Positions 8,761 through 49,370 of a DNA stretch of 49,479 nucleotides are shown here, piece by piece (position 1 is the first letter of the stretch; every line of letters begins with the position of its first letter). The notes beneath the pieces were generated by a model. The model searched no databases, was not told the origin of the DNA, and was given only the letters and a program-made list of their open reading frames with translations. Location of the stretch: positions 1-49,479 of the forward strand of contig JAJZKW010000006.1 of the NCBI GenBank assembly GCA_021803945.1. The letters run 5' to 3'. The DNA comes from Candidatus Micrarchaeota archaeon. Its GTDB lineage: Archaea > Micrarchaeota > Micrarchaeia > Micrarchaeales > CABMGC01. The translations under genes and the position numbers were made by a program.

Positions 8761-8762
8761 AC

Positions 8763-18410: not shown

Positions 18411-18419
18411 GGCAAGATC

Positions 18420-19106: not shown

Positions 19107-19279
19107 GTCAAGCGAGCTAGATCCGTCTAAAAACATCTCCAGAACATGCCGTATTGAAGAAGTAAAACGGGTTTCTTCAAAACAGGGCTAATGCCAAAAT
19201 AACAAATAATACTGTTATATTGTTAAAAAAAGAAAGATATTAATATGAGGAATCACGCTACATAATGCGTGTGTATTTT

Positions 19280-19906: not shown

Positions 19907-19929
19907 ACTTTATTGCTAGCGTGAAAATC

Positions 19930-20343: not shown

Positions 20344-20406
20344 AGGGCCGCAAGCTGCTTTTGTCCGCCAGCGCTGTAGCTTATATGCGTATTAAACAGA
20401 CAGCAG

Positions 20407-26182: not shown

Positions 26183-26300
26183 CTACCCATCCTTCTGCAT
26201 TGTTCAATACCTTTATACAAACTTTGGACAGGAAAGTTTTTATATATATGATATTATAATATTTCGTATGAAAAAGTATGATAATTAACGGGTAGTATCA

Positions 26301-27380: not shown

Positions 27381-27404
27381 GCCAATGAATTGAGACGCAT
27401 TTTT

Positions 27405-28328: not shown

Positions 28329-28389
28329 CACAGGCCAATATGCTACCTATTCAAGCATAAAGATTGGACAATCTTCAGAAGCAAGGCCT

Positions 28390-28989
28390 TCATGCATTCA
28401 AGAGCATCTGTTTTAGCTTTTTCAAGTTCTTTTTCTTCCTGTCGCAACGCATTTTTCTTGCCGATTCTGTAAAATACTTGTGACTAGCTAGGAACTTTAT
28501 CTGGATCATGTCCCATTCTTTATCAGAAAACCTAAATCCTCTCCTAGTCTCAAGCTCCTTTCTCAGATAGGATCCTCTCAAAAAGAAATCCCTTCTCCCT
28601 AAGCTATCTAAATCCGAGTCGCATATTATCTCTTGCATAAGATTCTTTGGCCTCTGCGGCATCTGTGTTGCAAGGATAAGTTTGGAGATTATCGATATCT
28701 CTTTTCTTCCAAACCCTGCCGTTGTCAAGTATTTCTTTGCAATATCTGCTCCCTCATGTTCATTTTTATTATATTTCCTAACATATCCTGTATCATGGAA
28801 TATCCCAGCTAGCGCCAGTAGTGTTATGTCTTTTTTCGATAAGCCTTCCATCTTACCATATCTTATTGCGCTCCTGTAGACTTCAAGAGTATGCTTTATA
28901 TCATGGTAATACATACTCTTAGGAAGCTTCTTTCTGAACAATCCACGCACATACTGTAAGGCTTCGTATATCTGTGTCTTATCATTCAT
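28390..28989 (-). CDS. HD-domain metal-dependent phosphohydrolase
   Basis: YYHDIKHTLEV, GIFHDTGY, ICDSDLDSLG. The ATG lies 8 nt inside the upstream gene (TATGAATGA junction). Visibly AT-rich. Confidence 0.8.
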   Translation of the reverse strand: MNDKTQIYEALQYVRGLFRKKLPKSMYYHDIKHTLEVYRSAIRYGKMEGLSKKDITLLALAGIFHDTGYVRKYNKNEHEGADIAKKYLTTAGFGRKEISIISKLILATQMPQRPKNLMQEIICDSDLDSLGRRDFFLRGSYLRKELETRRGFRFSDKEWDMIQIKFLASHKYFTESARKMRCDRKKKNLKKLKQMLLNA

Positions 28990-29773
28990 AATCTCCTTCC
29001 TTCAAAAGCGAGACTATTCTGTCTTCGAATCCTACCCCAAGGTATTGTCTAATCTCCCTCAATCTTTCAATACCTCCGCCCTCAGCAAAAATGTCGAAAT
29101 TTCCATAATAATACTTCACTATCTCATGCATATCTTCAATATCCTTTACTCCTCCACGGAGTCTCAAGAGATTGTATTTTATTCCAAGCTGATGGATTGG
29201 GTCTGGGACTTTTATTAGCATCACCTCTCCGTCGTCTGTTTTTACAAGTATGCTTATTGCATTACTGATTATCAAATCAGACGGAAATCCCATTAGCGTA
29301 TCCGTGCTCTCTGGACATCCAAGTAGTCTACACAGTTGTCTATGGTCTGTTATTACGTTTCCCCCAACAGTCAGGCTACTGTTTGCGGCTTCTATCTTTA
29401 TCCCAGATCTTTTATCAATAACTGAGTATATTTTGTTGTCTTTGAAGTATGCAATCTCAAATCCTTCATTCTCAAGTCTTTTTTTGAGATCTTCAGTAAT
29501 AAATAATTTTGATTCCCTAACTACTACATCAACGTCATTGACTTTCCGTTTTTGTGATATCAAATGTATTGACGAACCGCTAAATATTACCACCTCATCT
29601 CCCAGCGCTCTTTTAAACCTCCTATAGGCATCAGCGACAGTCTCCGTATCCCATTCGGTGCGTCTAATGGCACCTTTCAACCCTTTGGATATGTCATCAT
29701 CAACTGCTTTCGAAGCTCCAGCCATCCCGCTGTTTTTTAATCTATTCATAGTCTCACCAATAGCAAATTCCAT
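28982..29773 (-). CDS. Pol-beta-superfamily minimal nucleotidyltransferase-domain protein (unassigned subfamily)
   Basis: FSGSSIHLISQKRKVNDVDVVV fits hG[GS]x9-13Dh[DE]h. Candidate third carboxylate in GIKIEAAN. N-terminal ~60 aa and C-terminal ~120 aa are unassigned. AT-rich. Confidence 0.55.
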   Translation of the reverse strand: MEFAIGETMNRLKNSGMAGASKAVDDDISKGLKGAIRRTEWDTETVADAYRRFKRALGDEVVIFSGSSIHLISQKRKVNDVDVVVRESKLFITEDLKKRLENEGFEIAYFKDNKIYSVIDKRSGIKIEAANSSLTVGGNVITDHRQLCRLLGCPESTDTLMGFPSDLIISNAISILVKTDDGEVMLIKVPDPIHQLGIKYNLLRLRGGVKDIEDMHEIVKYYYGNFDIFAEGGGIERLREIRQYLGVGFEDRIVSLLKEGDYE

Positions 29774-30067
29774 AATCTATTTTTACAGGATTAACACTAG
29801 ATGTAGGCAAATGCATCAAAGAGGAGTCTAAACTTGAAAAAAAGTACTGATTAATGTGGGTGTATTTTATGTCCATAGGATATATGAAACGTACCCATAT
29901 TTAATACTTTCCTATCAATTGCTAGCATCCCCGTTTTTAAACAGGTCAATTCACATTTTTCATATCCTTCAATCATCTTATCTAGCCTATCTTTAGCATG
30001 TCTAAATGCATTCACCTAATATATATTTCAAATTGCAAATCATTGTTGCATGCGAATATATTGTGTT

Positions 30068-30079
30068 ATTTATATTTAA
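30068..30079 (+). promoter_or_regulatory. TATA-like box (ATTTATATTTAA) upstream of tRNA-Val
   Basis: Centred about 29 nt upstream of the tRNA 5' end at 30102. Confidence 0.35.
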
Positions 30080-30101
30080 CTACTATATAACTCATCTGCA
30101 C

Positions 30102-30172
30102 GGGCTCGTAGTCCAGCGGTAAGACGCTACCCTCACACGGTAGAGATCGGAGTTCGACTCTCCGCGGGCCCA
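30102..30172 (+). tRNA. tRNA-Val (anticodon CAC), no encoded CCA
   Basis: GGGCTCG-TA-GTCC-AGCGGTAA-GAC-G-CTACC-CTCACAC-GGTAG-AGAT-CGGAG-TTCGACT-CTCCG-CGGGCCC-A. 7-bp acceptor (one G.U), anticodon loop with U33-CAC-A37, T-loop TTCGA. Followed by TATCAA rather than CCA. Confidence 0.9.
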
Positions 30173-30353: not shown

Positions 30354-31301
30354 CTAGACAAGCCGCCTCAATGCTGCAACATCTTCCCTTATCTCATCCT
30401 CAGTCATAACCTTGGGCGGGCTCCCGTTTTCATACAAGTCATAATATATGTGATCCCCAGCGCCCGTATACCTATCCACATTTCTCCTCACAATCAGGTG
30501 TATATGCATCCTGTCCAATGGCATGGATACATATCCTCCGGTCTGCATGGACGTTATGTACGACCTGCTCTCATCGCCGTACATCTTAAGCAGGATAGTC
30601 ATGACCTTAGCGTATGTCCTTGCCAGGTCCTCAGCCTCTTCGCGGCTAAGCTGTGATATGTCGGATATGTCTCTTTTTGGGACCAAAAGCGCCTGTCCCT
30701 CTATAATCGGCTTCGGATTGTATACCGCGCTCCAACTCTCCGATTCATAAAATACGTTGCTGGACAGCTCAGGATCCAAGGCTGCAAATTTGCCGCTATT
30801 GCCTGTAACTGCGCTGATTGCAGGCCTTGCTCCCTCAAAATCCCTCCTAAGCATTTTTACTTCTTCCTCTATGCTGGCCAAGAATGGCCTTTCCTCGCCT
30901 TGAAGCGTTTTTTCATATATGTTGTCATAAGCTGGCTTGCCATCCTTCATACCCACTCGTTTCCTTGGTATTATGTGGATATGGAAATGGTCCACAGTCC
31001 TCCCAGACGCCTCTCCGCTCCGTATCATCAAGCAATAAGCATTCTCCCCTACGTTCCACAGGTCCATACTCGCCTTGACAGACTTGTTTATCATGCTAAA
31101 CAGTTCTCCTGTTTCCTGCGTTGTAAGATCCAGGAGTCCAGCCTTGTGCTCCTTAGTTATTAAGAGCAGATGCCCGTCAGTGCGCGCTATGACATCGTAA
31201 AGGCAGGCAAAATATCTTCCGGAGAAACCAAGTTGCCTTCCGACTCTGTTGCTATCGCAGAACGGGTCCTTTGCAGCTTGGAGCTTTTCTTTTGCCGCCA
31301 T
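30354..31301 (-). CDS. tandem (duplicated) FHIT-like HIT-domain protein
   Basis: Domain 1: DGHLLLITKEH...GRTVDHFHIHIIPRK...YDNIYEK. Domain 2: EGQALLVPKRD...DRMHIHLIVRR...GDHIYYDLYE. ATG at 31301 preferred over the TTG at 31325. Confidence 0.8.
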   Translation of the reverse strand: MAAKEKLQAAKDPFCDSNRVGRQLGFSGRYFACLYDVIARTDGHLLLITKEHKAGLLDLTTQETGELFSMINKSVKASMDLWNVGENAYCLMIRSGEASGRTVDHFHIHIIPRKRVGMKDGKPAYDNIYEKTLQGEERPFLASIEEEVKMLRRDFEGARPAISAVTGNSGKFAALDPELSSNVFYESESWSAVYNPKPIIEGQALLVPKRDISDISQLSREEAEDLARTYAKVMTILLKMYGDESRSYITSMQTGGYVSMPLDRMHIHLIVRRNVDRYTGAGDHIYYDLYENGSPPKVMTEDEIREDVAALRRLV

Positions 31302-31618
31302 ATCATAAACCCCAAGCCACAGCAATGCCAGGTATTGCTGTTAAATGTGAATATGATAAGATTAGAATGTGCATATAATATAATGCTGAATACTATTTAT
31401 ATATCTTTCCAGAATCAATGAGACAGTTTTATAAACAAAACAAAAATCAGCGCTGCATAACGAACATAATTATCAAAATATGCATAACGTTCTGTCACTC
31501 AGGCAACCCATATCAATCATTCCGAGCCGTTTTCTCAGGCAATAATGCATCCCTGTCATCAAACCGCCGCAACTAAGTAATAAAAATATACGTGCTCATA
31601 GTATAGCGTTGCGTGCTT

Positions 31619-37158: not shown

Positions 37159-38784
37159 ATGCAGACCAAGTATGTTGTTGTGTTAGGCTCACTCATGAGC
37201 GGACTCGGCAAAGGAGTCGTAACATCGTCCATACTCAAGCTTCTCGATTTCTACGGATACAAGGTCTTCCCGGTAAAATTCGACGGATACCTGAACTATG
37301 ACTGCGGGACAATGAACCCATATCAGCATGGCGAGGTCTTTGTCCTTGACGACAAGAGCGAAGTCGACATGGATTTCGGGATCTATGAAAGGTTCCTGAA
37401 CAAGAGCCTTACAGGAGACCTGTCAATAACCGGCGGAAAGCTCTTCAGCACAATAACCTCGAAGGAGAGGCAGGGGGAGTACCTTGGCGAGGACATACAG
37501 ATAATACCGCACCTTACAAACGACATAATAAAGAGGATAGAGGGCATATCGGAAGCGAAGAGGCCCGACGTCCTTGTGATAGAGGTCGGCGGGACTGTCG
37601 GAGACATAGAGAACAGCTACTTCATAGAGGCAATGAGGCAGCTCTCCCTAAAGCACGACGTGGTCTTCGTGAACCTCACATATGTCCACGATCTCAAGCT
37701 TACCGGGGAGCAGAAAACAAAGCCCGCGCAGATAGGCCTAAGGCTGCTACTTCAGGACGGGATAAGGCCCAACTTCCTGATATGCAGGGCTTCATCAAAG
37801 CTGCTGGAAAGCACAAAGGAGAAGCTGGCAATGTTCGCCAACCTGAACAAGGAGAGGGTGATAGACGATTCGGATCTGCTTACGCTTTACAGCCTGCCCC
37901 TGCAGTTCATGAAGCAGGATTTCGACAGGCTATTGATAAAGGACCTTGGCCTGGCCCCAAGGTCTCCTGACAGGAAAAAGATATCTGCCTGGAAGATGAA
38001 GGTGGACAGGATAATAAGCCCAAAGCGCGAAGCCACGATTGCGGTTGTCGGCAAGTACACGTCCATGAGGGACGCGTATGCGAGCGTAAAGGAGGCGCTT
38101 GTTCACTCAGGCGCAGAAGCTGACTCAAAGATCAACATAAAGTGGGTAGAGTCCACAGATTTCGAATCAAGGCTTCCGGATTTCTCGGCTTTCAGGGACG
38201 TCGACGGTGTGATTGTGACCGGAGGGTTCGGGACAAGGGGAATAGAGGGGATGGTCAACATAATAAGGCATTCCAGGGAGAACGGCCTGCCATATCTCGG
38301 CCTCTGCCTGGGCATGCAGCTCATGGCCGTTGAGTTCGCAAGGAACGTGTGCGGGCTCAGGGGCGCTAATTCATCGGAGTTCGACAAGGGTGCGAAGTAC
38401 AAGATAATAGATCTCCTCCCGTCGCAGAGGAAGATAGACAAGATGGGAGGCACGATGCGCCTCGGCTCGCAGGAATGCGACGTTGTGGACAAGGACACCA
38501 TAACATACAGGTCTTACAAGAGCATGGCAATACGTGAAAGGCATAGGCACAGGTACGAGTTCAACAATAAATTCAAGAAGACACTCATGGCAAAGGGCCT
38601 TAAGGTGGCTGCTGTCAACAGGCAGTTCAACCTGGTCGAGTTCATAGAATGGCCAGTCGGGTTCGGAGTGGCCACGCAGTCCCATCCAGAGCTCAAGTCA
38701 AGGCTGGAGACCCCGTCGCCCCTCTTCGTGAGCCTTGTCGAAGCAGCAGTCAGCCATCACGAGAGGAAAGATTTGAAGAGATAG
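37159..38784 (+). CDS. pyrG: CTP synthase
   Basis: KYVVVLGSLMSGLGKG, VIEVGGTVGDIE, glutaminase domain GLCLGMQL and HRHRYEFN. Confidence 0.97.
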   Translation: MQTKYVVVLGSLMSGLGKGVVTSSILKLLDFYGYKVFPVKFDGYLNYDCGTMNPYQHGEVFVLDDKSEVDMDFGIYERFLNKSLTGDLSITGGKLFSTITSKERQGEYLGEDIQIIPHLTNDIIKRIEGISEAKRPDVLVIEVGGTVGDIENSYFIEAMRQLSLKHDVVFVNLTYVHDLKLTGEQKTKPAQIGLRLLLQDGIRPNFLICRASSKLLESTKEKLAMFANLNKERVIDDSDLLTLYSLPLQFMKQDFDRLLIKDLGLAPRSPDRKKISAWKMKVDRIISPKREATIAVVGKYTSMRDAYASVKEALVHSGAEADSKINIKWVESTDFESRLPDFSAFRDVDGVIVTGGFGTRGIEGMVNIIRHSRENGLPYLGLCLGMQLMAVEFARNVCGLRGANSSEFDKGAKYKIIDLLPSQRKIDKMGGTMRLGSQECDVVDKDTITYRSYKSMAIRERHRHRYEFNNKFKKTLMAKGLKVAAVNRQFNLVEFIEWPVGFGVATQSHPELKSRLETPSPLFVSLVEAAVSHHERKDLKR

Positions 38785-39464
38785 GCTCCCTGCCTGAAGC
38801 CTGCCTTCGACGCTCCATGCTTCCTGATCCCGAAGGAGTAAGGGACTTCAGATATCCTTATACTATCCCGCTTCATGCACTTGAGGAAGTCGAACAGCAC
38901 CTTGTATCCTCCAGTCACAAACCTCCTGCGGTTGAGCGAATATGTACTACTGAATAGGCGCCTGTCGACACCGAAGAACCCGGAGAAGATATCATTTGAT
39001 CTCTCGCTGCGCCTGAGCAGCATGACCATGTAGCCAAGGCTGATAAGCATCTTCGATATCATCTTCCTGTGAAGCGCCCAGCCCTTCACCTCTGCCCGTA
39101 CTGCGATTGCAAGGTCCGCCCCTCCTTCAAGCTCCTTTGCGATCTTCCCGACAACTTCTGGAGGGTGCTGGAGATCGGCGTCCATGACTACGACAAACCT
39201 CGTCCTTGCTGCCGATATACCGTCAACCACGCTTCCTGTAAGCCCCTTCTCCAGGCGCGCCGCGGCCCTGTCTATGAGTCTGACCCTTCGGCTTCTCCCA
39301 GAGGCAGTTTTAACGTCTTCCACAGTGCTGTCGCGCGATCCGTCGTCCACCACTATCACGTGTATCCCGCCGTAAAGCTTTAGGAGCCTGCGTATGAGCA
39401 TGCCAATGCTCTTCCCTTCGTTCAGGGTAGGCAGCACCACTGTGAAATCATCGTAATCCATCAA
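38757..39464 (-). CDS. GT2-family glycosyltransferase, polyprenol/dolichol-phosphate hexose synthase-like (module a)
   Basis: VVLPTLNE, VIVVDDGSRDST, VVMDADLQHPP. Its 3' end overlaps the convergent pyrG by 28 nt. 4-nt overlap with the upstream flippase gene. Confidence 0.8.
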   Translation of the reverse strand: MMDYDDFTVVLPTLNEGKSIGMLIRRLLKLYGGIHVIVVDDGSRDSTVEDVKTASGRSRRVRLIDRAAARLEKGLTGSVVDGISAARTRFVVVMDADLQHPPEVVGKIAKELEGGADLAIAVRAEVKGWALHRKMISKMLISLGYMVMLLRRSERSNDIFSGFFGVDRRLFSSTYSLNRRRFVTGGYKVLFDFLKCMKRDSIRISEVPYSFGIRKHGASKAGFRQGAYLFKSFLS

Positions 39465-41083
39465 GACCTGACCCTGTGCATAAGCGATCTGTTAAGGCAT
39501 TCAGAGTAGTCCACAAGTATGCCCATTATCCTTCCAAGCATGCCAAGCTTTTCTGCAGTGAGCCTCATATATGCTATGTCCTTCATGTCAACCGCCTTAA
39601 GAAGCGTAAGTATTATTGGATAGACCACTATCAAGGCAGCAAGGCCCACGGCGATCTGTATTATGTATCTCAGGTCAGGCGACAGAGCCAGGAGATACGC
39701 TCCGCTTGCATACAGCCATGCCATGATCAGCGCCCAGATCAGAATGCTCGATATGTACAGCAATGCCATGTTCCTGTAATCAAGCGCGAGCCCGAACCTC
39801 CTCTTCGTCTCGACCGCGAACATAGCCGCCCTAACAAGGTTGCCTGCAAAATATATCGAGACTATGGCTCCGATTATCTGGACAGACGGCACAAGCGCAA
39901 TGAGCAGTACCAGCTGGACCGCAGCTGAGACCAGGTTCACTTTAAGCACGCTCTTTGTATGGCTCCCTGATATGAGAAGGTTGCTCGTGTATACCCCGAA
40001 TATGCCTATCATGGTGCCAATGGCCATAAGAGCCAGGTAAAGCGGCGCAGTGCTGAAACTGCTTGAGACAAGGAGATAGAGCCCCGGGACGGCCATCGCC
40101 CCCACAAACACTATCATCGGCAGCGTGAGCATAAGGCTGAATCTTATTATTGCATTGTATGTCCTGTTCACCTCCTCGGGCCTCTTCATCGCCCTTGCAG
40201 TGGTAAACGTTGTCAGCACGCCCATAGCGAAGGAGCCGTACACTATAGAGAGCAGTGTAAGGCCCCTGTTTGCCGCTCCGTAGTTTCCAAGCGCGGCGGT
40301 CATGACATAAAAGCCCAGGAGAAGTACAGAGAAGCTCTGCATACCGGTGTTGAGGAAGTTGTTTGCAGCCAGAGGAGTTGCAAAGGACAGGACATCCCTG
40401 AGCTCCTGCCTTGAAGGCAGGCGTATCCTGAACTTAACGTACCTCGATACCGAGATGTATATGAAATAGGCAGTGATCACTGCTCCTACAGCATATCCTA
40501 TCAGCATGGCCTCCACAGATCCGTTTATGCCGTACTCAATCGTGAGTATTATGCTGAGCGCGAGCTGTACGATGTCAACGACTATGTTAGATATGGCTGC
40601 CAGCCCTGCGCGCGACAGCCCTACAAGCCCATTGACAGCCGCAGTGTTCGCCATCAGGAAGAATATCATTGCTGATGCGAGCTCAAGCGTTATGGGCTGT
40701 ACTCCTATGTTCGGGAACAGACCTGCGACATAGCCGCTTATGGCGATGCCGAACAGGCTCAGCGCCATCCCTACTGCCATCACTATCGCGTATCCTGATG
40801 AGAGCACCTTCAGCATGCCTCTTCCATCCTTTTTGTAATGAAGGGCAGCCAGCTGCCTGTTCCAGTACGTCCCTATGCCAAACGCTGCAACTGCGTTTAC
40901 AAGCGCCGAGAACCCGAAAGCGAATACGTATATCCCGTACCGCGAAGGTCCGAGTATGCGTGTGACTGCAATGAAGGTTGCCGCAGTAAGCAGAAGCCCC
41001 AAAAACTGGCCGACAAACAAAGGATATATGAGCTTCGCGGCCCTCGACCCCATGTTCTCGCCCGTTTCAGTATGCATCCCCAA
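39461..41083 (-). CDS. MOP-superfamily (Wzx-like) oligo/polysaccharide flippase
   Basis: About 14 hydrophobic helices. N-terminal AAKLIYPLFVGQFLGLLLTAATFIAVTRILGPSRYGIY is typical of the polysaccharide biosynthesis protein family. Alternative start at 41053. Confidence 0.75.
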   Translation of the reverse strand: MGMHTETGENMGSRAAKLIYPLFVGQFLGLLLTAATFIAVTRILGPSRYGIYVFAFGFSALVNAVAAFGIGTYWNRQLAALHYKKDGRGMLKVLSSGYAIVMAVGMALSLFGIAISGYVAGLFPNIGVQPITLELASAMIFFLMANTAAVNGLVGLSRAGLAAISNIVVDIVQLALSIILTIEYGINGSVEAMLIGYAVGAVITAYFIYISVSRYVKFRIRLPSRQELRDVLSFATPLAANNFLNTGMQSFSVLLLGFYVMTAALGNYGAANRGLTLLSIVYGSFAMGVLTTFTTARAMKRPEEVNRTYNAIIRFSLMLTLPMIVFVGAMAVPGLYLLVSSSFSTAPLYLALMAIGTMIGIFGVYTSNLLISGSHTKSVLKVNLVSAAVQLVLLIALVPSVQIIGAIVSIYFAGNLVRAAMFAVETKRRFGLALDYRNMALLYISSILIWALIMAWLYASGAYLLALSPDLRYIIQIAVGLAALIVVYPIILTLLKAVDMKDIAYMRLTAEKLGMLGRIMGILVDYSECLNRSLMHRVRS

Positions 41084-41170
41084 TCTCCAAAAGACATATA
41101 AAAATAAACATTTATATTATCGCATACGTAACCTTGTCTTTGAAAGTGGGGCGCAAAAGGGCGGATTTGT

Positions 41171-43387
41171 TTGAAGCAGAAAATTGCAGACTACCTGATA
41201 TCCAGGAAGCATTACCTAAAGGCGTTTGCAGTATATCTCCTGATCTCCCTTGTGATGTTCTGGCAGGTGACAATAAACCTCTTCAGTTATGTTGTCAATG
41301 GGTATGGGGATGTCTACCAGTCCCTCTTCAACCTCTGGTGGGTGCCGCATGCCGTCTTCTCGCTGCACCAGTCCCCGTATTTCACAGGCCTCCTCTTCTA
41401 TCCGATCGGAGCCAACCTTGTCACGCAGACGCTCACCCCGTTGGCCGGCCTGCTCACGCTTCCCCTTCAGCTGATAAGCGGAGCATTCGCCTATAATGCG
41501 CTCTTCTTCAGCAGCTTCGCGCTCTCAGGCGTATTCATGTTCGCCCTGTCAAACTACTTCGTGAAGAACAAATATGCCTCTTTCCTTGCAGGGCTGGTCT
41601 TCGCCTTCGCCCCAATGCACATAGCGCAGGCGTACGGCCATCTTGACTGGACCATAATCGAGTGGGTGCCCCTCTTCCTCCTGCTTTACATAAAGACGAT
41701 AGACGAGAAGAAGCTCAAATATGCAGCGTTTGCATCCATAAGCTTCGTCCTGCTGACGTTCATGGGTGACATCGAGCAGGGGATAATGGTCTTCTTCGCG
41801 ACAATAGTCTTTACCCTATTATACCTCCTTCTCGACCGCAGGAAGCTGCTCAATAGGGGAACAATCATGAATCTCGGGGCATTCGCAGTGCTCACGCTGA
41901 TATTTTCTTCCCCATTCATAATCGCAATGCTGCCCTACCTGGGCAGCGGTGCCTTCTCAGCAGCGCAGCAGAACTCCGGGGTGACAAGCAGCATGATGTG
42001 GAGCAACAATCTACTCTCATTCCTCCTGCCGAGCTATTATAACGGCATATTCAACTCCGCAGCCCAGTCGTACACAGCGCAGCTCTACGGCCTGACCTAC
42101 AAGGGGATAACGTACCAGATAGACATAGGCGACAGGGTCTCCTTCATAGGCTATACTGTCCTTGCGCTTGTCCTGATCGCGCTCTACTTCGACCTGAAGA
42201 GGAACAGGCTCAGGCACCTGTCCATATGGCTTATACTCGGCATAGTCTTCGCCTGGCTATCCCTCGGCCCATACCTGCAGGTAGGCAGCGTGGTGACGGG
42301 CGTGCCAACCATATACATGCTCTACAGGGCGGTCCCGATATTGAATATAATACGCGAGCCAGGGCGATTCGACCTCATAGTCACGATATGCCTTGCAATG
42401 ATGGCAGCCTTCGGCTTCGACCAGCTTGTAAGGGACAGGGGCAGGAAGTACGCATTCAACATGCTGCTTGTCCTGTCAGTGCTCATACTCATAGAGTACA
42501 ACGGCATGCCCCTCTCCCAGGCATTCGCAAGCCAGCTAATAACCTCGACGCACATACCAAGGGCCTACACAGAGATTGGTAAGATACCTGGAAACTTCTC
42601 GGTCCTGATACTGCCGGCCCTGCTGAACTCGTCCAACGCTCCGGCCAGGTTCCCCGGCCTCTCCACATACTATGTCTCAGCGCTGCAGAAGCCGATAATC
42701 GGAGGCTATACGAGCAGGGAGACGTACAACCAGTCAGTCTCTGTCAGCGCAGTGCCCCTTATCCAATCCGCTTCATACCTCGAGCAGGGCTTCGGGCTCA
42801 TATATCCGTCACCGATAAACGAGAACTTCAGCAACGTCACCCTGCTGTGGCTTGCAAACTACAATACTGAATTCGTCTCTGTCACAAGGTCTGCATACGA
42901 TGCATCTGGGCAGGCTGCGCTATACGCGTACCTGACGGGCCTCTTCGGGCAGGCGGTGTACCAGAGCAATTCCACATTCGTCTTCTCAACCGCAAACGCA
43001 ATACGGGCAAAGGCCGCAAAATCGCTTGTCGCGTACACAATGGGGAACTGGACTCCTGGATACTCCTTCTGCAGCTCGTACCAGTGCAACCGCACCCTCG
43101 CAAGCGAGTGGTGGGGCCCTAATCCAAGGCTATTGATAATCTTCTCTCCGAAGGTGGACAATGTCAGGATGTCGTTCACTTCACTGGCACTGGCTCCTAA
43201 CACAACGCTCGGCCTGTACCTGAACAACAATCCGGTACAGAACCTGATGCTGCACCAGTCCCCGACAGGATACTCGGTGAATATGACCCTGCCGCAGGGA
43301 TTCAGTCAGCTCGTCTTCTATTCCAAGTCTGCCCCTGTCCAGCCATACCTGACATTCGGAGTAGAGAACATAACCTTCTCCCGCTGA
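41171..43387 (+). CDS. 738-aa polytopic membrane protein with C-terminal exodomain, GT-C-like (paralog A); function unknown
   Basis: About 12-13 N-terminal helices. First-loop motif GDVYQSLFNLWW. Blocks YPIGANLV, FAFAPMHIAQAYGHLDWT, REPGRFD, LIEYNGMP, IIGGYTSRE, SPINEN, and terminal GVENITFS. The TTG start is supported by alignment to paralog B. Confidence 0.6.
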   Translation: MKQKIADYLISRKHYLKAFAVYLLISLVMFWQVTINLFSYVVNGYGDVYQSLFNLWWVPHAVFSLHQSPYFTGLLFYPIGANLVTQTLTPLAGLLTLPLQLISGAFAYNALFFSSFALSGVFMFALSNYFVKNKYASFLAGLVFAFAPMHIAQAYGHLDWTIIEWVPLFLLLYIKTIDEKKLKYAAFASISFVLLTFMGDIEQGIMVFFATIVFTLLYLLLDRRKLLNRGTIMNLGAFAVLTLIFSSPFIIAMLPYLGSGAFSAAQQNSGVTSSMMWSNNLLSFLLPSYYNGIFNSAAQSYTAQLYGLTYKGITYQIDIGDRVSFIGYTVLALVLIALYFDLKRNRLRHLSIWLILGIVFAWLSLGPYLQVGSVVTGVPTIYMLYRAVPILNIIREPGRFDLIVTICLAMMAAFGFDQLVRDRGRKYAFNMLLVLSVLILIEYNGMPLSQAFASQLITSTHIPRAYTEIGKIPGNFSVLILPALLNSSNAPARFPGLSTYYVSALQKPIIGGYTSRETYNQSVSVSAVPLIQSASYLEQGFGLIYPSPINENFSNVTLLWLANYNTEFVSVTRSAYDASGQAALYAYLTGLFGQAVYQSNSTFVFSTANAIRAKAAKSLVAYTMGNWTPGYSFCSSYQCNRTLASEWWGPNPRLLIIFSPKVDNVRMSFTSLALAPNTTLGLYLNNNPVQNLMLHQSPTGYSVNMTLPQGFSQLVFYSKSAPVQPYLTFGVENITFSR

Positions 43388-43488
43388 AACCTGCGAGGAC
43401 AACAGGTGTTTTTGTAGATAAACTTTAAATACATTGTCCAGGTCAATAGCATCTGCGACCAAAGATCTGGTAGCAGGTTTGGGTAAGA

Positions 43489-43725
43489 ATGGGAATCGAA
43501 GATATCGTCGTAGGTGAGACCTACGACATGCGAATCGCGGCAAAGGACCCCCGGGGCGAGGGGATTGGAAGGATAAATGATGTGGTGGTCTTCATGAAGA
43601 ACACCAAGCCAAGGCTTGGCAAGATATACAAAGTGAGGATAACCAATGCTCACAAGACCTTCGCGTATGCAGAACCGATTGACAACAGCAAGCCTTTTAT
43701 AGGTAACGGGACTTTAATATTATAG
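43489..43725 (+). CDS. TRAM-domain RNA-binding protein
   Basis: VGETYDMRIAAKDPRGEGIGRINDVVVFMKNTKPRLGKIYKVRITNAHKTFAYAEPI matches the stand-alone archaeal TRAM pattern. Confidence 0.8.
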   Translation: MGIEDIVVGETYDMRIAAKDPRGEGIGRINDVVVFMKNTKPRLGKIYKVRITNAHKTFAYAEPIDNSKPFIGNGTLIL

Positions 43726-43779
43726 ACTAACACAACATCTTTTAGTCATTATTTTTATTCCCTAATCATAGGTGTACTA

Positions 43780-44415
43780 ATGGTGGATAGAGACTTCTAC
43801 GAAAATATAAAGAAGGGGACAACGACTGTCGGGATAGTCTGCAGCGACGGAGTGGCCATGGGCGCAGACTCACGCGCTACGATGGACACGTTCATATCGA
43901 GCTCCGAGGCGGTCAAGATATACCACATAAACGACGGCCTTGCGATGACAATCGCCGGAGGCGTAGGAGACGCAGAGTACCTGGTCAAGCTCCTGAAGAT
44001 GCAGGACGAGATGTACACGATGGAGGAGAAGAAGCCGCTGACGCCAACTTCGGCCACATCACTCCTCTCGCTCATCCTGCAGGAGAACAAGGGCTTCCCG
44101 TTCTACGTCCAGCTGGTGCTAGGAGGGCTCAACAAGAATGCTCACGAGATATACAACATAGACCCTGTCGGAGGCTATACTAAGGAATCGAGGTTCACCT
44201 CGACCGGGAGCGGATCGCTGACAGCCCTGGGATACCTGGAAGGCATATACGAAAGCAGCATAACGACGCAGGAGGCGGTGAAGCACATAGCAAAGGCGCT
44301 GAAGATAGCGATGAAGAGGGACTCAGCAACGGGGGACAGCACGAAGATAGTGACAATAACCAAGAAGGGCTTCAAGGACTACACGAAGGAAGAGATGGAG
44401 AAGCTCCTCAAGTGA
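43780..44415 (+). CDS. psmB: proteasome subunit beta
   Basis: Propeptide followed by GTTTVGIVCSDGVAMGADSRAT (catalytic Thr), then GSGS...A. Confidence 0.95.
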   Translation: MVDRDFYENIKKGTTTVGIVCSDGVAMGADSRATMDTFISSSEAVKIYHINDGLAMTIAGGVGDAEYLVKLLKMQDEMYTMEEKKPLTPTSATSLLSLILQENKGFPFYVQLVLGGLNKNAHEIYNIDPVGGYTKESRFTSTGSGSLTALGYLEGIYESSITTQEAVKHIAKALKIAMKRDSATGDSTKIVTITKKGFKDYTKEEMEKLLK

Positions 44416-44478
44416 TGCGGCATAATAACGCTTAATTTTCTTTTTCAATTTTTGGGATAGTACGCATTTTGTGATATA

Positions 44479-46419
44479 TTGAGCGACGAAGAGTACAACA
44501 AGGAGATACTGGAGAAGGTAAGCGGCTTGATCCCAAGCGACGCCGAACTGTCCAGCGTGGAGTTCGAGGGGCCCGATGTGGCAGTCTACGTCAATAACAT
44601 AGGCGCCATATACAGGGACGAGGGCATAATCAAGAACATCTCTGCGTCGGTGAAGAAGAGGCTCATAGTCAGGAGCAATCCCTCGAAGCTGATGGAGCCA
44701 GAGGAGGCGCTCCAGAAGATAAAGCTGATCATACCCGCAGATGCAGGCGTGCAGCCGGAAGGCATAAGGTTCATGCCCGATTTCTCCGAGGTCTATATAG
44801 AGGCGCTCAAGCCCGGCCTTGTAATAGGCAAGGGCGGATCCACGCTAATGCAGATAATAAGGGAGACGAACTGGGTACCGCGCGTCCTGAGGCAGCCGAC
44901 AATGAACAGCGATGTCATAAAAGGCGTCAGGCAGCTGATGTTCAAGGAGAGCGCCTTCAGGAAGAAATTCCTGGGATCGCTGGGAAGGAAGATAAACAGG
45001 ATAAATACAAAGAGCGAATGGGTCAAGGCCACGGCACTTGGAGGGTTCAAGGAAGTCGGGAGGAGCAGCCTGCTGATAGAGACCAACCACTCAAAGATAC
45101 TCATAGACTGCGGGATAAGCCCTGAGCCCGGGATAAAGGGCGGTGACGCCAACACCGGAGGGGAGAACAAGGCCTATCCATACCTAGACAGCATGAACAT
45201 AACGATAAACGACCTCGACGCGGTAATACTAACCCACGCGCACATGGACCACATGGGGTTCGTGCCTTACCTCTTCAAGTTCGGCTACACCGGTCCGGTA
45301 TACTGCACTCCTCCCACAAGGGATCTCGCAGCCCTGCTCCTGTACGATTACAACAAGCTCGTGATGAAGACAGGGGGCACGCCACTCTACGGGGAGAAGG
45401 ACATAAAGACAATGCTCATGCACATGGTCACCAGGGACTACGGCGAGGTCACAAACGTGACAGACGAGATAAAGCTCACGTACCATAACGCAGGCCACAT
45501 ACTCGGAAGCGGCACTGTGCACCTGCACATAGGCGAGGGGATGTACAACATAGTGAGCACAGGGGACATGAAATACGGGTTCACGAGGCTGCTCGACGAG
45601 GCAGACACGAGATATCCAAGGATAGACTCGCTCTTCATAGAGAGCACATACGGTGGCCCGAATGACATAACGACCAACAGGAAGATGGCAGAGATAGAGC
45701 TGATGAATATAATAAAGAACACAGTGAAGAACGGAGGCAAGGTGATGGTGCCCCTCTTCGCCGTGGGAAGGAGCCAGGAGCTGATGCTGATCCTGGAGAG
45801 CTACATGACCAACAATCCAGAGTACAAGCTTGACGTTCCCATCTACCTGGACGGCATGATACTGGAGGCAAGCGCAATACACACTGCATATCCCGAGTAC
45901 CTGAGGATGGGCGTGCAGCAGAGGATACTGAGCAACAACTCCCCGTTCGAGAGCGAGATATTCGAGATCGCCAAGGGGGAGAGGGGAGATATACTGGACA
46001 AGGGGCCGTCTGTCATACTTGCAAGCGGCGGAATGCTGAACGGAGGAGTAAGCCTCGAATACTTCAAGGCCATGGCAGAGGACCCGAAGAATGCCGTAAT
46101 ATTCGTGGGATACAACAGCGTAAGCTCGCTGGGCAGGAGGATCCAGAACAAGGCCAGCGAGATAGCTATCCCAGGCGAGGACGGGAAGATGGTGAAAAAG
46201 AAGATAAACGCGCAGATAAGGACTGTGGAGGGATTCTCAGGGCACAGCGACAGGAGGCAGCTTATGGACTTCGTAAGGAACCTCAGGCCGTCTCCAAGGA
46301 AGATATTCACCATGCATGGCGAGGAATCCAAGTGCGAAGACCTCTCAAGGTCGCTGGGAAACATGATGCGCTGCGAATCCAGGGCCCCCATGGATCTTGA
46401 CACAATAAGGTTCAAATAG
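44479..46419 (+). CDS. aCPSF1/FttA: KH-domain beta-CASP metallo-beta-lactamase ribonuclease
   Basis: N-terminal KH region (SSVEFEGPDVAVYV, GLVIGKGGSTL), MBL motif LTHAHMDHMG, and beta-CASP motifs. TTG start is required to include the conserved N-terminus. Adjacency to a proteasome subunit gene is a conserved archaeal arrangement. Confidence 0.92.
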   Translation: MSDEEYNKEILEKVSGLIPSDAELSSVEFEGPDVAVYVNNIGAIYRDEGIIKNISASVKKRLIVRSNPSKLMEPEEALQKIKLIIPADAGVQPEGIRFMPDFSEVYIEALKPGLVIGKGGSTLMQIIRETNWVPRVLRQPTMNSDVIKGVRQLMFKESAFRKKFLGSLGRKINRINTKSEWVKATALGGFKEVGRSSLLIETNHSKILIDCGISPEPGIKGGDANTGGENKAYPYLDSMNITINDLDAVILTHAHMDHMGFVPYLFKFGYTGPVYCTPPTRDLAALLLYDYNKLVMKTGGTPLYGEKDIKTMLMHMVTRDYGEVTNVTDEIKLTYHNAGHILGSGTVHLHIGEGMYNIVSTGDMKYGFTRLLDEADTRYPRIDSLFIESTYGGPNDITTNRKMAEIELMNIIKNTVKNGGKVMVPLFAVGRSQELMLILESYMTNNPEYKLDVPIYLDGMILEASAIHTAYPEYLRMGVQQRILSNNSPFESEIFEIAKGERGDILDKGPSVILASGGMLNGGVSLEYFKAMAEDPKNAVIFVGYNSVSSLGRRIQNKASEIAIPGEDGKMVKKKINAQIRTVEGFSGHSDRRQLMDFVRNLRPSPRKIFTMHGEESKCEDLSRSLGNMMRCESRAPMDLDTIRFK

Positions 46420-46459
46420 CCTGCCCTGGCAAGAAGATACCATAAACAGAGGAACTCCC

Positions 46460-47149
46460 ATGCTCTCATTGATACTGCCGATATACAACGAGTACGATAA
46501 TCTAAACAAGAACTTCGACATAATATACAGGGCTGCCAGAAAGCTCGGGAAGTTCGAGATCATACTGGCAGAGGACGGCTCAAGCGATGGATCACCAGAG
46601 TTCATAAAAAGCAGGGGAAGGCTGAGCGGGGTCAGGATCCTGACCTCTCCGAAGCGGCTAGGGCGCGGCGGAGCAATAAAAAATGCAGTCAGTATAGCAA
46701 GGGGGGAGGTGATAGGATACATGGACATAGACCTCGCAGTGCCGATAAAGTACCTTCCGCGCGCAGTCAGGCTGATAGAGGACGGAGAGAAGTTCGTCAC
46801 AGGATCAAGATACATAAAGGACTCCAGGATAGACAGGAAGTTCGACAGGCTATTCCAGAGCGTGTCCTACAATGCAATACTGAAGCTGGTCTTCAATTCC
46901 AGAGTAAATGACCACCAATGCGGGTTCAAGTTCTGGTCGTCAGGATTCATAAAGAGGATAATCCCAGAGATAAAGGACAGGCACTGGTTCTTTGATACCG
47001 AGCTGATAATAAAATCAGAACGCGAGGGCATAAGGGTGTACGAGCTGCCGGTCGAATGGAAGGAGCAGAGCTCGACAAAAGTCAGATTGTCAGACATATT
47101 CTACTTCCTTAAGTCCATAATAAGGCTCAAGACCGGGGCATACCGATAA
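46460..47149 (+). CDS. GT2-family glycosyltransferase, dolichol-phosphate hexose synthase-like (module b)
   Basis: SLILPIYNE, ILAEDGSSDGS, GYMDIDLAVP, HQCGFKFW. Its stop lies 10 nt from the stop of convergent paralog B. Confidence 0.8.
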   Translation: MLSLILPIYNEYDNLNKNFDIIYRAARKLGKFEIILAEDGSSDGSPEFIKSRGRLSGVRILTSPKRLGRGGAIKNAVSIARGEVIGYMDIDLAVPIKYLPRAVRLIEDGEKFVTGSRYIKDSRIDRKFDRLFQSVSYNAILKLVFNSRVNDHQCGFKFWSSGFIKRIIPEIKDRHWFFDTELIIKSEREGIRVYELPVEWKEQSSTKVRLSDIFYFLKSIIRLKTGAYR

Positions 47150-47159
47150 AATCAGCCTA

Positions 47160-49370
47160 TCAAGAGAACGTTATGTTCTCAACCCCGTAATCCATATACT
47201 GGTATGCGCTTTGGGTCGTATTGCGCGCATAAAAGACCACCTGGTTGAAGCCTCCATGCAGCGTGACAGCCGCAGAATAACTCTCCGGAGCGGCCGTCAG
47301 GTTAATGCCTTTGACCAGTTTCCCGTTCGCATAAAGGTACAGTTCAGAACCGACTGGAGAGAACGCATCAAAGCCGAGCGTCACTGATGCTCCAGCCGGG
47401 GAGTAGATCTCCACGCCCCTGGCATTCCCTCCGAACCACATATCCGCTATTGTCTGGTTGCACCTGGCCAGGTAGCTGCATAAAGACTGCCCAGGTATCC
47501 ATTCTCCTGCAGTATAGGCTACCGTGTATCCGGAGTTCTTGAGTATTGCTCCTCCAGCGTCGAACAGCACGACTGCCTTCCCATCATAGACCGGGGCTCC
47601 GAAAACGCTGTAAAGGTAATGATGCAGTTCGGAGTATGAGCTTTGGTTATATGCCTGCTTTATGACACCTACATACTGCACGTTGTCTTCCTGCATGAGC
47701 AGTAGGGTAAGCCTCGTGTAATTTTCGTTGATAGGGGAGGCGTAGGAGAATCCGTTCCCCATCTCAAGGTTCCCGCCCTCTATTGAAAGCGGTATGATGT
47801 ATGTGGAAAGATACTGGGTGCTGTTTTCCCTGGAGGTATATCCGCCTATCATAGGTTTCTTGAATGCAGTCTGGTAGTACATCGACTCGCCCAGGTAAAA
47901 GGCAGGCAGCGTCTGGTTCGGAGTGTCAGGCAGCAGCATGACCGTGTAGTTCTGCGTAGAGTTTCCGATGCTGTAAAATACCTTTGGGATGCTTACGTTC
48001 ATGTACCACTGCTGCGCAAGCGCATTGCTGGGCATGCCGTTGTACTCTATGAGTATGAACGCAAGGAAGAGCGCAAACAGCCAGGTCCTGGCGCGGCCTG
48101 CCGGATACCTCTTGGCAGCCGCCTCTGAAAGGTACACAAACCCGAAAGCCGCGAGCATTGCGAACCCGAGCTCTGCAATCACGTCAAACCGCCCAGGTTC
48201 CCTAAGCAGATTGAACAGCGGGATATTCGCGTATAGAAGGTATATGCCAGGAAGTCCGGTGCTGCTCCCGCCCAGTGATACGTACGGGCCTAGGGCGAGC
48301 CATGCAAAGACGATTATCACGAATAGCCACAAGAACACCATAGGGAACCTCCTGTTCCTATACTCGTTCAACACCGCAAGCGCAGAGAGGAAGAGTACGC
48401 TGTACCCTATGTAAGAGACCTTCTCGTTTATGTCCGCCTTGTATATCTGGTAATAGCCTGCAGCGACCCCGTTGAAGACCGCATTGAAAGAGCTGGGAAG
48501 GAAGAATGCAGCCAGGTCGTCGCTGAACTGCATGTTCTGGCTGATCGTGGAGACTCCGAGCGATTCGCCTACTATCCCGGAGTTCATGACAGAGCTGACT
48601 ATCTGTATCAGGAAGGGGGATCCGATTATGGCGAATATGGCAACGATCTCGCACAGCCCAATGAGGAATCTCCTGTCAAGCACCCTTTTCCTGTCGAATA
48701 CGAGCATGTAAGCCAAAAAAAGCGCGATGAAGACAGAGGTCATCACGGCCTGCAGGAGGTCCCCGGCAAATGTCAACAGGACAAAGGAGACTGCAGCCCC
48801 AAATACGTAAACCTGCTTCCTCTCATTGAAGAACATGAGGAAAAAGAGGATGAACAGCGGTATAAACTCAAGCGAAGTCCAGTTGAGATGCGCATATGCA
48901 TGGGCGATGTGGACAGGGGCGAATGCGAATATCGCGCCTGCTATGAACGCCGCGCGCCTGTCCCTTGCAAGGTAGTATGCCAGGGCATATGTGAAGAGTC
49001 CGGTCAGGACGAACCCGAGCACAAATATGGTATTGTATTCCGCAGCGAGCCCGAGGAGCTGCAGCGGAGCCCCGATTATGCCGGCCAGCGGCATGAGGTC
49101 CTGGACTACGAGGTTCGCCCCTATCGGATGGTATAGGAGGCTGGTGAAATACAGGTTCGTATGCAGCGTGAATGTGGAGTAGCCAGACCACCAGAGGTTC
49201 CACATGCTCTGATATGCGTCTCCGCTGTGCACTACCGTACTGCCAAACCCGAGCGTCACCGGCCAGAACATCACCAGCGTCATGAGCAGGTATGCCAACG
49301 AGACCAGTGCAAGGGTTTTGCGCTCAGATTTCAGGAACCTGTACATATCCGTGTCTGTTATATCGTACAC
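47160..49370 (-). CDS. 736-aa polytopic membrane protein with C-terminal exodomain, GT-C-like (paralog B); function unknown
   Basis: Collinear with paralog A over the full length, roughly 40 percent identity by eye: GDAYQSMWNLWW, HPIGANLV, FAFAPVHIAHAYAHLNWT, REPGRFD, LIEYNGMP, MIGGYTSRE, SPINEN, and terminal GVENITFS. Confidence 0.6.
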   Translation of the reverse strand: MYDITDTDMYRFLKSERKTLALVSLAYLLMTLVMFWPVTLGFGSTVVHSGDAYQSMWNLWWSGYSTFTLHTNLYFTSLLYHPIGANLVVQDLMPLAGIIGAPLQLLGLAAEYNTIFVLGFVLTGLFTYALAYYLARDRRAAFIAGAIFAFAPVHIAHAYAHLNWTSLEFIPLFILFFLMFFNERKQVYVFGAAVSFVLLTFAGDLLQAVMTSVFIALFLAYMLVFDRKRVLDRRFLIGLCEIVAIFAIIGSPFLIQIVSSVMNSGIVGESLGVSTISQNMQFSDDLAAFFLPSSFNAVFNGVAAGYYQIYKADINEKVSYIGYSVLFLSALAVLNEYRNRRFPMVFLWLFVIIVFAWLALGPYVSLGGSSTGLPGIYLLYANIPLFNLLREPGRFDVIAELGFAMLAAFGFVYLSEAAAKRYPAGRARTWLFALFLAFILIEYNGMPSNALAQQWYMNVSIPKVFYSIGNSTQNYTVMLLPDTPNQTLPAFYLGESMYYQTAFKKPMIGGYTSRENSTQYLSTYIIPLSIEGGNLEMGNGFSYASPINENYTRLTLLLMQEDNVQYVGVIKQAYNQSSYSELHHYLYSVFGAPVYDGKAVVLFDAGGAILKNSGYTVAYTAGEWIPGQSLCSYLARCNQTIADMWFGGNARGVEIYSPAGASVTLGFDAFSPVGSELYLYANGKLVKGINLTAAPESYSAAVTLHGGFNQVVFYARNTTQSAYQYMDYGVENITFS

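Follow-up and report, generated by a model that had tools for sequence, protein, structure and literature searches.

A Candidate Outer-Face Glycosylation Locus with GT2, Wzx-Type and Predicted GT-C Proteins in Candidatus Micrarchaeota

We analysed a stretch of 49,479 nucleotides from the genome of a Candidatus Micrarchaeota archaeon (contig JAJZKW010000006.1, hereafter referred to as the window) and in particular the genes located between positions 38757 and 49370. It is fairly probable that this region encodes two copies of a three-component glycosylation system acting at the outer face of the membrane, consisting of a lipid-sugar synthase of glycosyltransferase family 2 (GT2), a Wzx/AglR-like flippase, and a GT-C transferase. 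This reading is drawn from the gene content, the predicted fold, the predicted topology, residue conservation, and gene linkage, from which we infer all of the catalytic steps. The two GT-C candidates, designated big1 and big2, belong to an uncharacterised sequence family that is conserved across the Micrarchaeota metagenome-assembled genomes (MAGs) sampled.

The left module starts with gt2a (38757-39464, minus strand), encoding a DPM1-type GT2 of 235 aa that is soluble or peripheral and predicted to be a dolichol-phosphate hexose synthase. It is followed by a gene for a Wzx-type MOP flippase of 540 aa with about 14 hydrophobic segments (39461-41083, minus strand). As both genes overlap by 4 nt, they are probably co-transcribed. 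Divergently oriented is big1 (41171-43387, plus strand), whose product of 738 aa is a candidate GT-C-fold membrane glycosyltransferase with 11 predicted transmembrane (TM) helices, its N-terminus inside and its C-terminal domain outside. The spacer of 87 nt between wzx and big1 (41084-41170), which is AT-rich as read from the sequence (ACATATAAAAATAAACATTTATATTA), is a likely site of divergent archaeal promoters. In the right module, gt2b (46460-47149, plus strand), encoding a soluble DPM1/ArnC-type GT2 of 229 aa, is convergent with big2 (47160-49370, minus strand), a paralogue of big1 that encodes 736 aa with the same architecture. According to the map of open reading frames (ORFs), the stop codons of gt2b and big2 are 10 nt apart. 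While gt2b is located 10 nt from big2, gt2a lies 1.7 kb from big1, and the right module has no flippase gene of its own. With respect to coordinates, strands, gene overlap and stop codon spacing, the ORF map agreed in full with the original prediction, which had been made from the letters of the DNA.

The big1/big2 family and its predicted fold

The products of big1 and big2 are collinear and share 42% identity across 729 aa (BLASTP, E 9e-176), nicely corresponding to the roughly 40% that had been estimated by eye. All shared blocks quoted at that time (GD.YQ..NLWW, YPIGANLV, FAFAP.HIA.AY.HL.WT, REPGRFD, LIEYNGMP, IGGYTSRE, and SPINEN) were present in the alignment. At the nucleotide level, the overall identity of the two genes is 53%. 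The description of the modules as two inverted paralogous copies is correct at the protein level but does not apply to the DNA, in which a long inverted repeat is absent; a recent inverted DNA duplication of the two modules was ruled out by the 53% nucleotide identity, with a stretch of 29 nt as the only notable repeat. This stretch is perfectly identical in big1 (42483-42511) and big2 (48030-48058), is inverted since the genes occupy opposite strands, and encodes LILIEYNGMP around the invariant residues E442 and Y443. It comprises 9 identical codons (P ~0.002 under a simple codon-choice null) and may be due to micro gene conversion or to a constraint at the nucleotide level. In a rough neighbour-joining tree, big1 falls within a clade of syntenic orthologues conserved across Micrarchaeota, and big2 represents a deep-branching paralogue with few close orthologues. 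Its neighbour in the tree, the family gene of locus L063, has a GT2b-type gene 27 nt upstream.

Scans of big1 and big2 against Pfam-A and NCBIfam at E≤1 yielded nothing but a single chance-level match to DUF6069, and an NCBIfam scan of 10 relatives yielded no match; the family was not identified by any of the Pfam/NCBIfam scans of big1, big2 and their relatives. Specifically, neither protein matched the STT3 (PF02516) or AglB models at E≤1, nor did they match the PMT (GT39), YfhO, GT87, or AftD N-terminal profiles, to which none of 53 relatives displayed an above-threshold match. Sub-threshold Pfam matches among 53 family members pointed solely to GT-C families, namely STT3, YfhO, GT87, and the AftD N-terminal domain. 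These were isolated hits in one or two of the 53 members each (STT3, 2e-5 in one member; YfhO, 3.8e-4 in one member; GT87, 6.1e-4; GT-C_AftD, 0.0076, with weak matches in two members). The proteins had been thought to belong to no named family. This holds for big1 and big2 themselves, which are without Pfam or NCBIfam match, but many homologues are labelled PF19830 (DUF6311), itself an uncharacterised family. The precomputed label occurs on more than half of the homologues and also on distant relatives; the window's own proteins have no precomputed PF19830 entry, as none is listed for their cluster (P0001), and the PF19830 model was absent from the Pfam copy that was scanned. DUF6311 is probably the nearest existing database label for the big1/big2 family. 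A literature search for this domain of unknown function, which has no characterised member, returned zero papers, and all family members in public databases are named 'hypothetical protein'. The family is large, as its profile matches 21,310 clusters at E≤1e-3 and 3,085 clusters (at 50% identity) at E≤1e-30. The closest database relatives come from MAGs assigned to Candidatus Micrarchaeota/Micrarchaeaceae.

An AlphaFold2 model of big1 was built on an alignment of 53 sequences (referred to as A1) and had a mean predicted local distance difference test score (pLDDT) of 90.3 and a predicted template modelling score (pTM) of 0.87. When this model was compared to the PDB by Foldseek, 28 matches were obtained at E≤1e-3, and all 28 are GT-C enzymes. 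Best matches were AftD (6wby, 1.5e-9), eukaryotic STT3 (2.4e-9), and Archaeoglobus fulgidus AglB (1.9e-8); others included DPY19, PglB, EmbA/B/C, and Pmt4. At the level of the superfamily, the model thus supports a GT-C fold for big1 and big2, as had been anticipated from their general plan.

By DSSP analysis of the model and the positive-inside pattern, big1 is predicted to possess 11 TM helices along with short interfacial helices, rather than the 12-13 N-terminal helices initially counted, a cytoplasmic N-terminus, and a C-terminal domain that is located outside. The N-terminus and the cytoplasmic loops are rich in K/R, and the loop of residues 38-108, which follows the K/R-rich N-terminus, contains none of these residues. 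Both pattern and model indicate that the GD.YQ motif of the first loop (residues 46-57, GDVYQSLFNLWW; 41306-41341, plus strand) faces outward, as previously proposed. In the model, the near-invariant D47 of this motif is positioned at the start of the helix formed by residues 46-65, following TM1. A second conserved block, REPGRFD (residues 395-401; 42353-42373, plus strand), is located in the outer loop preceding TM10, contains R399, and is present in 66 of 83 family members. The third, IEYNGMP (residues 441-447; 42491-42511, plus strand), is found where the last TM helix ends on the outer side and contains E442 and Y443; its position corresponds to that of WWDYG in STT3 enzymes, which is a positional analogy only.

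D47 is conserved in at least 90% of the sequences in A1 and in 88% of 138 wider representatives. R399 is the most conserved polar residue of the family (93% of the 138 representatives), and E442 and Y443 are invariant in A1, with E442 occurring in 89% of the wider set. The most conserved polar residues among these diverse representatives are D47, W56, N109, H150, S278, R399, E442, and R516, all of which the big1 model places in outer loops or at the outward ends of helices. In GT-C enzymes such as PglB, ArnT, and PMT, an acid opening the first outer loop and a conserved basic residue usually serve catalysis and binding of the donor phosphate. We propose D47 as the catalytic acid/base of big1 and R399 as a putative phosphate ligand.

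The predicted extracytoplasmic C-terminal domain of big1 (residues 446-738; 42506-43384, plus strand) consists of an alpha/beta subdomain and a terminal beta-sandwich and was also modelled separately (pLDDT 81). Foldseek identified the sandwich (approximately residues 620-738; 43028-43384, plus strand) as CBM35/CBM6-like, with matches (E 4e-6 to 1e-4) that span about 130 residues. In the isolated domain, the last ~130 residues matched only generic beta-sandwiches of the CBM35/CBM6, MAM, and BcsB type, and no match to the alpha/beta subdomain (residues 446-615) occurred within the top 50 Foldseek matches. The domain harbours a conserved Cys634/Cys639 pair and numerous N-x-S/T sequons, 11 in big1 and also 11 of the 12 sequons of big2. 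Across 83 family members, the median was 13 sequons per C-terminal domain, about three times the number expected by composition (13.0 observed versus 4.5 expected). Per 100 aa, the C-terminal domain contains 4.3 sequons and the TM domain 0.38, an 11-fold difference in density, and the sequons at residues 475, 518, 552, 640, and 733 recur in 57-76 of the 83 sequences. This pattern supports the prediction that the C-terminal domain is extracellular and N-glycosylated; apparently, the transferase is itself heavily N-glycosylated.

GT2 enzymes, flippase, and conserved gene linkage

Both GT2 proteins match PF00535 (GT2a, E 6.7e-25; GT2b, 3.1e-23). The best PDB relative of GT2a is the dolichol-phosphate mannose (Dol-P-Man) synthase of Pyrococcus furiosus (5mlz, E 1.8e-27), followed by GtrB and ArnC. 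Residues 8-221 of GT2a align to residues 26-231 of 5mlz and hence to the whole catalytic domain; VVMDADLQHPPEV is identical, and the catalytic block DADLQH is common to both enzymes. GT2b matches 5mlz at 1.2e-13 and ArnC at 4.6e-11, and its best NCBIfam match, which is below the cutoff, is a haloarchaeal dolichyl-phosphate hexose transferase (3.3e-13). At the position of the DAD..Q metal/nucleotide-sugar motif, GT2b carries D-I-D-L-A. Matches of GT2a and GT2b to the structures of GtrB (sll0501) and ArnC were at E 1e-10 to 1e-11. For GT2a, the comparison revealed a full-length GT2 catalytic domain with the DAD..Q motif, as in DPM1 and dolichol-phosphate mannose synthases (DPMS), and the matches of both proteins corroborate the suggested relationship to polyprenyl-phosphate glycosyltransferases. 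Likewise, the assignment of the 540-aa protein to the Wzx/Polysacc_synt group of MOP proteins is backed by matches to PF01943 (Polysacc_synt, 4.8e-18) and PF13440 (3.2e-16) and by 14 hydropathy segments; no solved relative of this protein was detectable by sequence search.

Using one genome per species, we obtained 79 loci with family genes at 34-64% identity, nearly all from Micrarchaeota MAGs, and located the neighbouring genes by hidden Markov models built from the window proteins. Within 4 kb of 85 family genes, a wzx gene was present in 53 cases, a DPM1-type GT2 gene in 47, either of them in 62, and both in 38. The distance between wzx and the family gene was 200 nt or less in 42 of the 85 cases. 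GT2 genes occurred at a density of 1.0 per 10 kb near a family gene compared to 0.13 per 10 kb further off, so that DPM1-type genes are 7.5-fold enriched within 4 kb, and in many MAGs the gene adjoining the family gene is an orthologue of gt2a (42-62% identity). Thus, the expected co-localisation with GT2 genes in other genomes was found, and it extends to wzx and to three different gene orders. The commonest order (arrowheads indicating direction) is ppase, ctps>, <gt2a, <wzx in one or two copies, big>, tram>, psmB>, cpsf>. A second, co-directional order is gt2b>, big>, wzx>, gt2a> (L007, L016, L017, and L018), and a third is <wzx, <gt2a, big> (L051, L053, L055, L058, L059, L066, and L074). 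In the second and third orders the surrounding genes change while the association with GT2 and/or Wzx is kept. In L007, L011, L016, L017, L050, and L063, the family gene has a GT2b-type gene as its immediate neighbour. The linkage to DPM1-type GT2 genes provides indirect support for a polyprenyl-phosphate sugar as the donor of big1 and big2.

In many Micrarchaeota (L002, L003, L008, L009, L022, L024, L026, L027, and others), two tandem, diverged Wzx paralogues are located between GT2 and GT-C. These are 24-29% and 31-44% identical to the single Wzx of the window, and some such loci have lost the GT2 gene at this position. Family paralogues with neither GT2 nor Wzx nearby are accompanied in some cases by GT4, sulfatase/LtaS-like, or CDP-alcohol transferase genes and in others by housekeeping genes. 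Two of these orphan paralogues are adjoined by giant, mutually related ORFs, both running off the ends of their loci (L046, 1-5022, at least 1673 aa; L052, 2-7585, at least 2527 aa). The giant ORFs may encode large surface proteins and would then be candidate acceptors.

The two modules of the window flank the genes encoding TRAM (43489-43725, plus strand; PF01938), the proteasome beta subunit (psmB; 43780-44415, plus strand), and aCPSF1/FttA (44479-46419, plus strand). This bracketing had been pointed out in the original prediction. The order big1-TRAM-psmB-aCPSF1 recurs in dozens of MAGs, and in most MAGs the trio follows the big1 orthologue whether or not a second module is present. The trio was therefore ruled out as a system component, and the bracketing reflects conserved synteny, with no indication of a functional unit. 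Two further MAGs likewise carry another family paralogue shortly 3' of aCPSF1, but on the same strand as the first (L035, 16405-18273; L060, 10464-12755). Accordingly, a second copy beyond TRAM-psmB-aCPSF1 is recurrent, whereas neither its orientation nor a GT2 partner recurs.

Proposed pathway and competing explanations

If the region encodes the three-component system outlined above, the soluble enzymes GT2a and GT2b would, as judged by homology, load dolichol phosphate (Dol-P) at the cytoplasmic face with a hexose donated by a nucleotide sugar. The Wzx/AglR-like MOP protein would then move the Dol-P-sugar to the outer leaflet, as suggested by its family and its linkage. Finally, given their predicted fold, big1 and big2 would bind the Dol-P-sugar in an active site facing outward, to which D47 in the first outer loop, H150, R399, and E442 of big1 are putatively assigned, and transfer the sugar to an extracytoplasmic acceptor. 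A monosaccharide donor is favoured because no oligosaccharide-assembly genes were found among the window ORFs scanned and the GT2s are of the DPM1 type. As acceptor, a glycan or protein belonging to the glycosylated S-layer or to the cell surface would be most likely. Of these, a glycan is weakly favoured by the presence of a CBM-like module and by the similarity to AftD/Emb, and the CBM35/6-like C-terminal domain may help to hold such an acceptor. Each being equipped with its own GT2, big1 and big2 would differ in the sugar they add or in the acceptor they serve.

A system composed of GT2, flippase, and GT-C is already known, for example from AglD/AglR/AglS and Gtr, and this class of mechanism is not a new principle. 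In Haloferax volcanii, AglD (GT2), AglR (Wzx-like), and AglS (Dol-P-Man mannosyltransferase) add the final mannose of the S-layer N-glycan (PMC3871713). In this pathway, the GT2 charges a separate dolichol phosphate inside, Wzx-like AglR is needed for translocation, and the polytopic AglS adds the hexose outside (PMC3871713). The flippase of the window is also of the Wzx type and not of the GtrA type. In contrast to the haloarchaeal system, the GT2s of the window are short and without TM helices, and the genes are tightly linked and duplicated; the likeness of big1 and big2 to AglS refers to the proposed role only. In bacteria, the systems GtrA/GtrB/GtrC, CsbB/GtcA/YfhO, and ArnC/ArnEF/ArnT similarly combine a GT2 polyprenyl-phosphate sugar synthase, a flippase, and a GT-C enzyme, and a GT-C enzyme with a lipid-linked donor is a hallmark of such three-component systems (PMC11127046). 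They differ in that they use undecaprenyl phosphate, whereas dolichol phosphate would be the carrier here, and in that they possess a small flippase of the GtrA or SMR type instead of a MOP/Wzx protein with 14 TM segments. Moreover, the GT-C of the window belongs to another, uncharacterised sequence family.

Several observations weigh against the three-component system. Neither big1 nor big2 displayed any significant sequence match to characterised GT-C enzymes (PDB sequences and Pfam/NCBIfam models), a search of PDB chain sequences with big1 and with the 53-sequence profile gave only chance matches (E>2), and the structural similarity of big1 to its GT-C matches is moderate (TM-score 0.38-0.47, identity 10-13%). 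Hydropathy analysis predicted zero TM helices for GT2a and GT2b, which consequently are without the membrane anchor of P. furiosus DPMS, GtrB, and ArnC. Membrane attachment as in DPMS was thus not apparent for either enzyme, and a partner subunit may exist but was not found; human DPM1 acts together with partner subunits. Wzx proteins classically flip lipid-PP-oligosaccharides rather than monosaccharide carriers. With regard to the linkage, the same conserved block retains the genes for CTP synthase, pyrophosphatase, TRAM, psmB, and aCPSF1, indicating that the linkage could in part represent inherited synteny, and the orphan paralogues of the family number about 20. No GT2 or Wzx was found in the gene context of three distant relatives, two of which are labelled DUF6311. 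From this small sample, the GT2/Wzx linkage appears to be a feature of the Micrarchaeota clade and not of the whole superfamily. The sequencing runs linked to the locus are from mine-drainage samples only. Three mine-drainage metatranscriptomes of the same study contained none of the sequence words of the locus and thus provided no coverage; a single contig piece of 59 nt could be mapped, and it lies inside aCPSF1.

Among the alternatives, we regard it as unlikely that the family represents a highly divergent oligosaccharyltransferase, an analogue or replacement of AglB, for which GT2a would start a short Dol-P glycan in the manner of AglJ, Wzx would flip it, and the GT-C protein would transfer it en bloc to Asn (or Ser/Thr). 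STT3, AglB, and PglB (CAZy GT66) belong to the most similar structures solved (E 2.4e-9 to 4e-4, with those among the top structural neighbours at E 2.4e-9 to 1e-7), and they share with big1 an inward N-terminus, a large outer C-terminal domain, and outer loops in which acidic and basic residues are conserved. The placement of the motifs is also STT3-like, if by positional analogy only, with an acid in outer loop 1, REPGRFD before TM10, and E-Y-x-G after the last TM helix. In addition, a big1 orthologue occupies the core syntenic position in most Micrarchaeota, as would suit a housekeeping function, oligosaccharide carriers are the normal substrates of Wzx, and the sub-threshold STT3 match in one family member points in the same direction. 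However, at 10-13% identity, big1 has 11 TM helices instead of 13, is without the WWDYG, DK, and MI motifs, and ends in a CBM35/6-like sandwich, and the C-terminal domain of AglB is not among the top 50 matches of its C-terminal domain. Furthermore, models for STT3 (Pfam) and AglB (NCBIfam) had no match in big1, big2, and 10 relatives, and AftD, which acts on glycans, fits equally well. Among the window ORFs scanned, neither an STT3/AglB nor an additional glycosyltransferase able to assemble an oligosaccharide was found, and such builders were likewise not found near the locus.

This alternative is closely connected to the question of AglB itself. As stated in the original prediction, the giant proteins are without WWDYG: a motif search for WW[DE][YWFN]G found no occurrence in big1, big2, or any ORF of 84 loci (about 1.2 Mb of related loci, not whole genomes), with I-E-Y-N-G at the equivalent position, and WW[DE]xG was absent from all window ORFs of at least 90 aa. 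For Ca. Micrarchaeum harzensis, Table S7 of a study on the Micrarchaeota S-layer contains two hits to TIGR04154 (AglB-type) along with several GT2s of the AglJ type, and its authors conclude that an N-glycosylation system is expressed in this organism and that its S-layer protein is glycosylated (bioRxiv 10.1101/2021.04.28.441871). DPANN archaea are described to have their own type of AglB (PMC8993221). Since 10 members of the big1/big2 family had no NCBIfam match, the TIGR04154 hits of Ca. Micrarchaeum harzensis are probably different proteins, and both these two separate candidates and the DPANN-type AglB argue against a role of the family as oligosaccharyltransferase. The sequon-rich outer domain, in turn, suggests that the organisms carrying this family perform N-glycosylation. 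Taken together, the sequons, the TIGR04154 hits, and the DPANN-type AglB render it doubtful that glycosylation by this system is 'AglB-independent', as had been put forward.

A further possibility, which we consider distinctly improbable, is that big1 and big2 are real GT-C enzymes uncoupled from GT2 and Wzx. The adjacency would then be a gene order inherited within small, syntenic DPANN genomes, GT2 and Wzx would serve the ordinary AglB pathway, and the GT-C proteins would use another donor or acceptor, for example in the glycosylation of membrane lipids or glycolipids. The unrelated housekeeping genes of the conserved block, the orphan paralogues, and the unlinked distant relatives are all consistent with this possibility, as are at least six loci with Wzx but without GT2 nearby (including L020, L024, L026, L027, L035, and L080). 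However, the linkage outlasts three rearrangements, in two of which the housekeeping neighbours differ and yet GT2 and/or Wzx remain adjacent. In addition, the paralogue big2 has a GT2 of its own at 10 nt, as does the related L063 at 27 nt, and the enrichment of DPM1-type GT2 genes around family genes also favours a coupled function.

The structural matches to AftD and EmbA/B/C, which are arabinan-building GT-Cs with carbohydrate-binding modules, raised a third alternative. Both groups share with big1 a GT-C core together with extracytoplasmic beta-sandwich modules of the carbohydrate-binding type, and they use a polyprenyl-phosphate monosaccharide donor. In contrast, the TM-score normalised to the target is only 0.21-0.29, and the organisms and acceptors are unrelated. 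AftD and Emb are also much larger, with 1000-1400 aa and 15-16 TM helices. That the GT-C proteins polymerise or elongate a surface polysaccharide in an Emb/AftD-like or Wzy-like fashion, using Wzx-flipped lipid-linked units for an exopolysaccharide or cell-wall polymer instead of glycoproteins, would suit these matches, the CBM35/CBM6-like sandwich, and a flippase typical of Wzx/Wzy pathways, but is very unlikely, as the genome analysis of Ca. Micrarchaeum harzensis saw no sign of cell-wall polymer synthesis, Wzy-type polymerases are generally known to differ in fold from the STT3/AftD-type matches, and genes for repeat-unit assembly were not found nearby.

Neighbouring genes and implications for Micrarchaeota

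The remaining genes of the window encode ordinary archaeal functions, including complex I subunits, a UbiX/UbiD/UbiA/UbiE cluster, a polyprenyl synthase, ribosomal proteins, FtsZ, a CCA-adding enzyme, and CTP synthase. The segments 15559-21285 and 5412-11935 contain a gene cluster of the quinone-biosynthesis type, encoding a UbiX-like flavoprotein, UbiD, a UbiA prenyltransferase, and a UbiE methyltransferase, with the polyprenyl synthase nearby, and genes for several complex I (Nuo) subunits. The Ubi cluster and the Nuo subunits could constitute a respiratory tool-kit in a DPANN genome, and the polyprenyl synthase could bear on the supply of the lipid carrier. Genes of the sugar-activation type are located 10-13 kb upstream of the glycosylation locus (25319-28328 and 30354-31325) and encode an NTP_transferase of the sugar-1-phosphate nucleotidyltransferase type, a HAD phosphatase, a ROK-family kinase, and a HIT/GalT-like protein. 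These could supply nucleotide sugars to the GT2s, which is of note as the cultivated Ca. Micrarchaeum harzensis reportedly lacks the ability to produce activated sugars. The segment at 28001-30172 has a G+C content of 0.39 compared to about 0.50 elsewhere. It contains an HD-domain ORF (28390-28989) and an ORF of 263 aa without family assignment (28982-29773) and adjoins the only tRNA gene, tRNA-Val(CAC) (30102-30172). This segment could be a small integrated or foreign element.

Micrarchaeota are host-dependent DPANN archaea with tiny genomes, whose glycosylated S-layer forms the interface to the host and whose glycosylation machinery is essentially unannotated. It appears improbable, as the boldest extension of our results, that big1 and big2 define an unrecognised, Micrarchaeota-wide class of protein glycosyltransferases, diverged from STT3 with E-Y-x-G in place of WWDYG, which would transfer Dol-P-sugars made from host-scavenged nucleotide sugars onto S-layer or surface proteins, in parallel to or replacing AglB. 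If true, such a class would be a key determinant of the symbiont surface and of host recognition. The three-component system that we favour would add an uncharacterised sequence family to the GT-C superfamily and would represent a second archaeal example of outer-face glycosylation following the logic of AglD/AglR/AglS. With a conserved and often duplicated gene linked to genes for a Dol-P-sugar synthase and a flippase, it would provide a testable pathway of surface decoration for the phylum.

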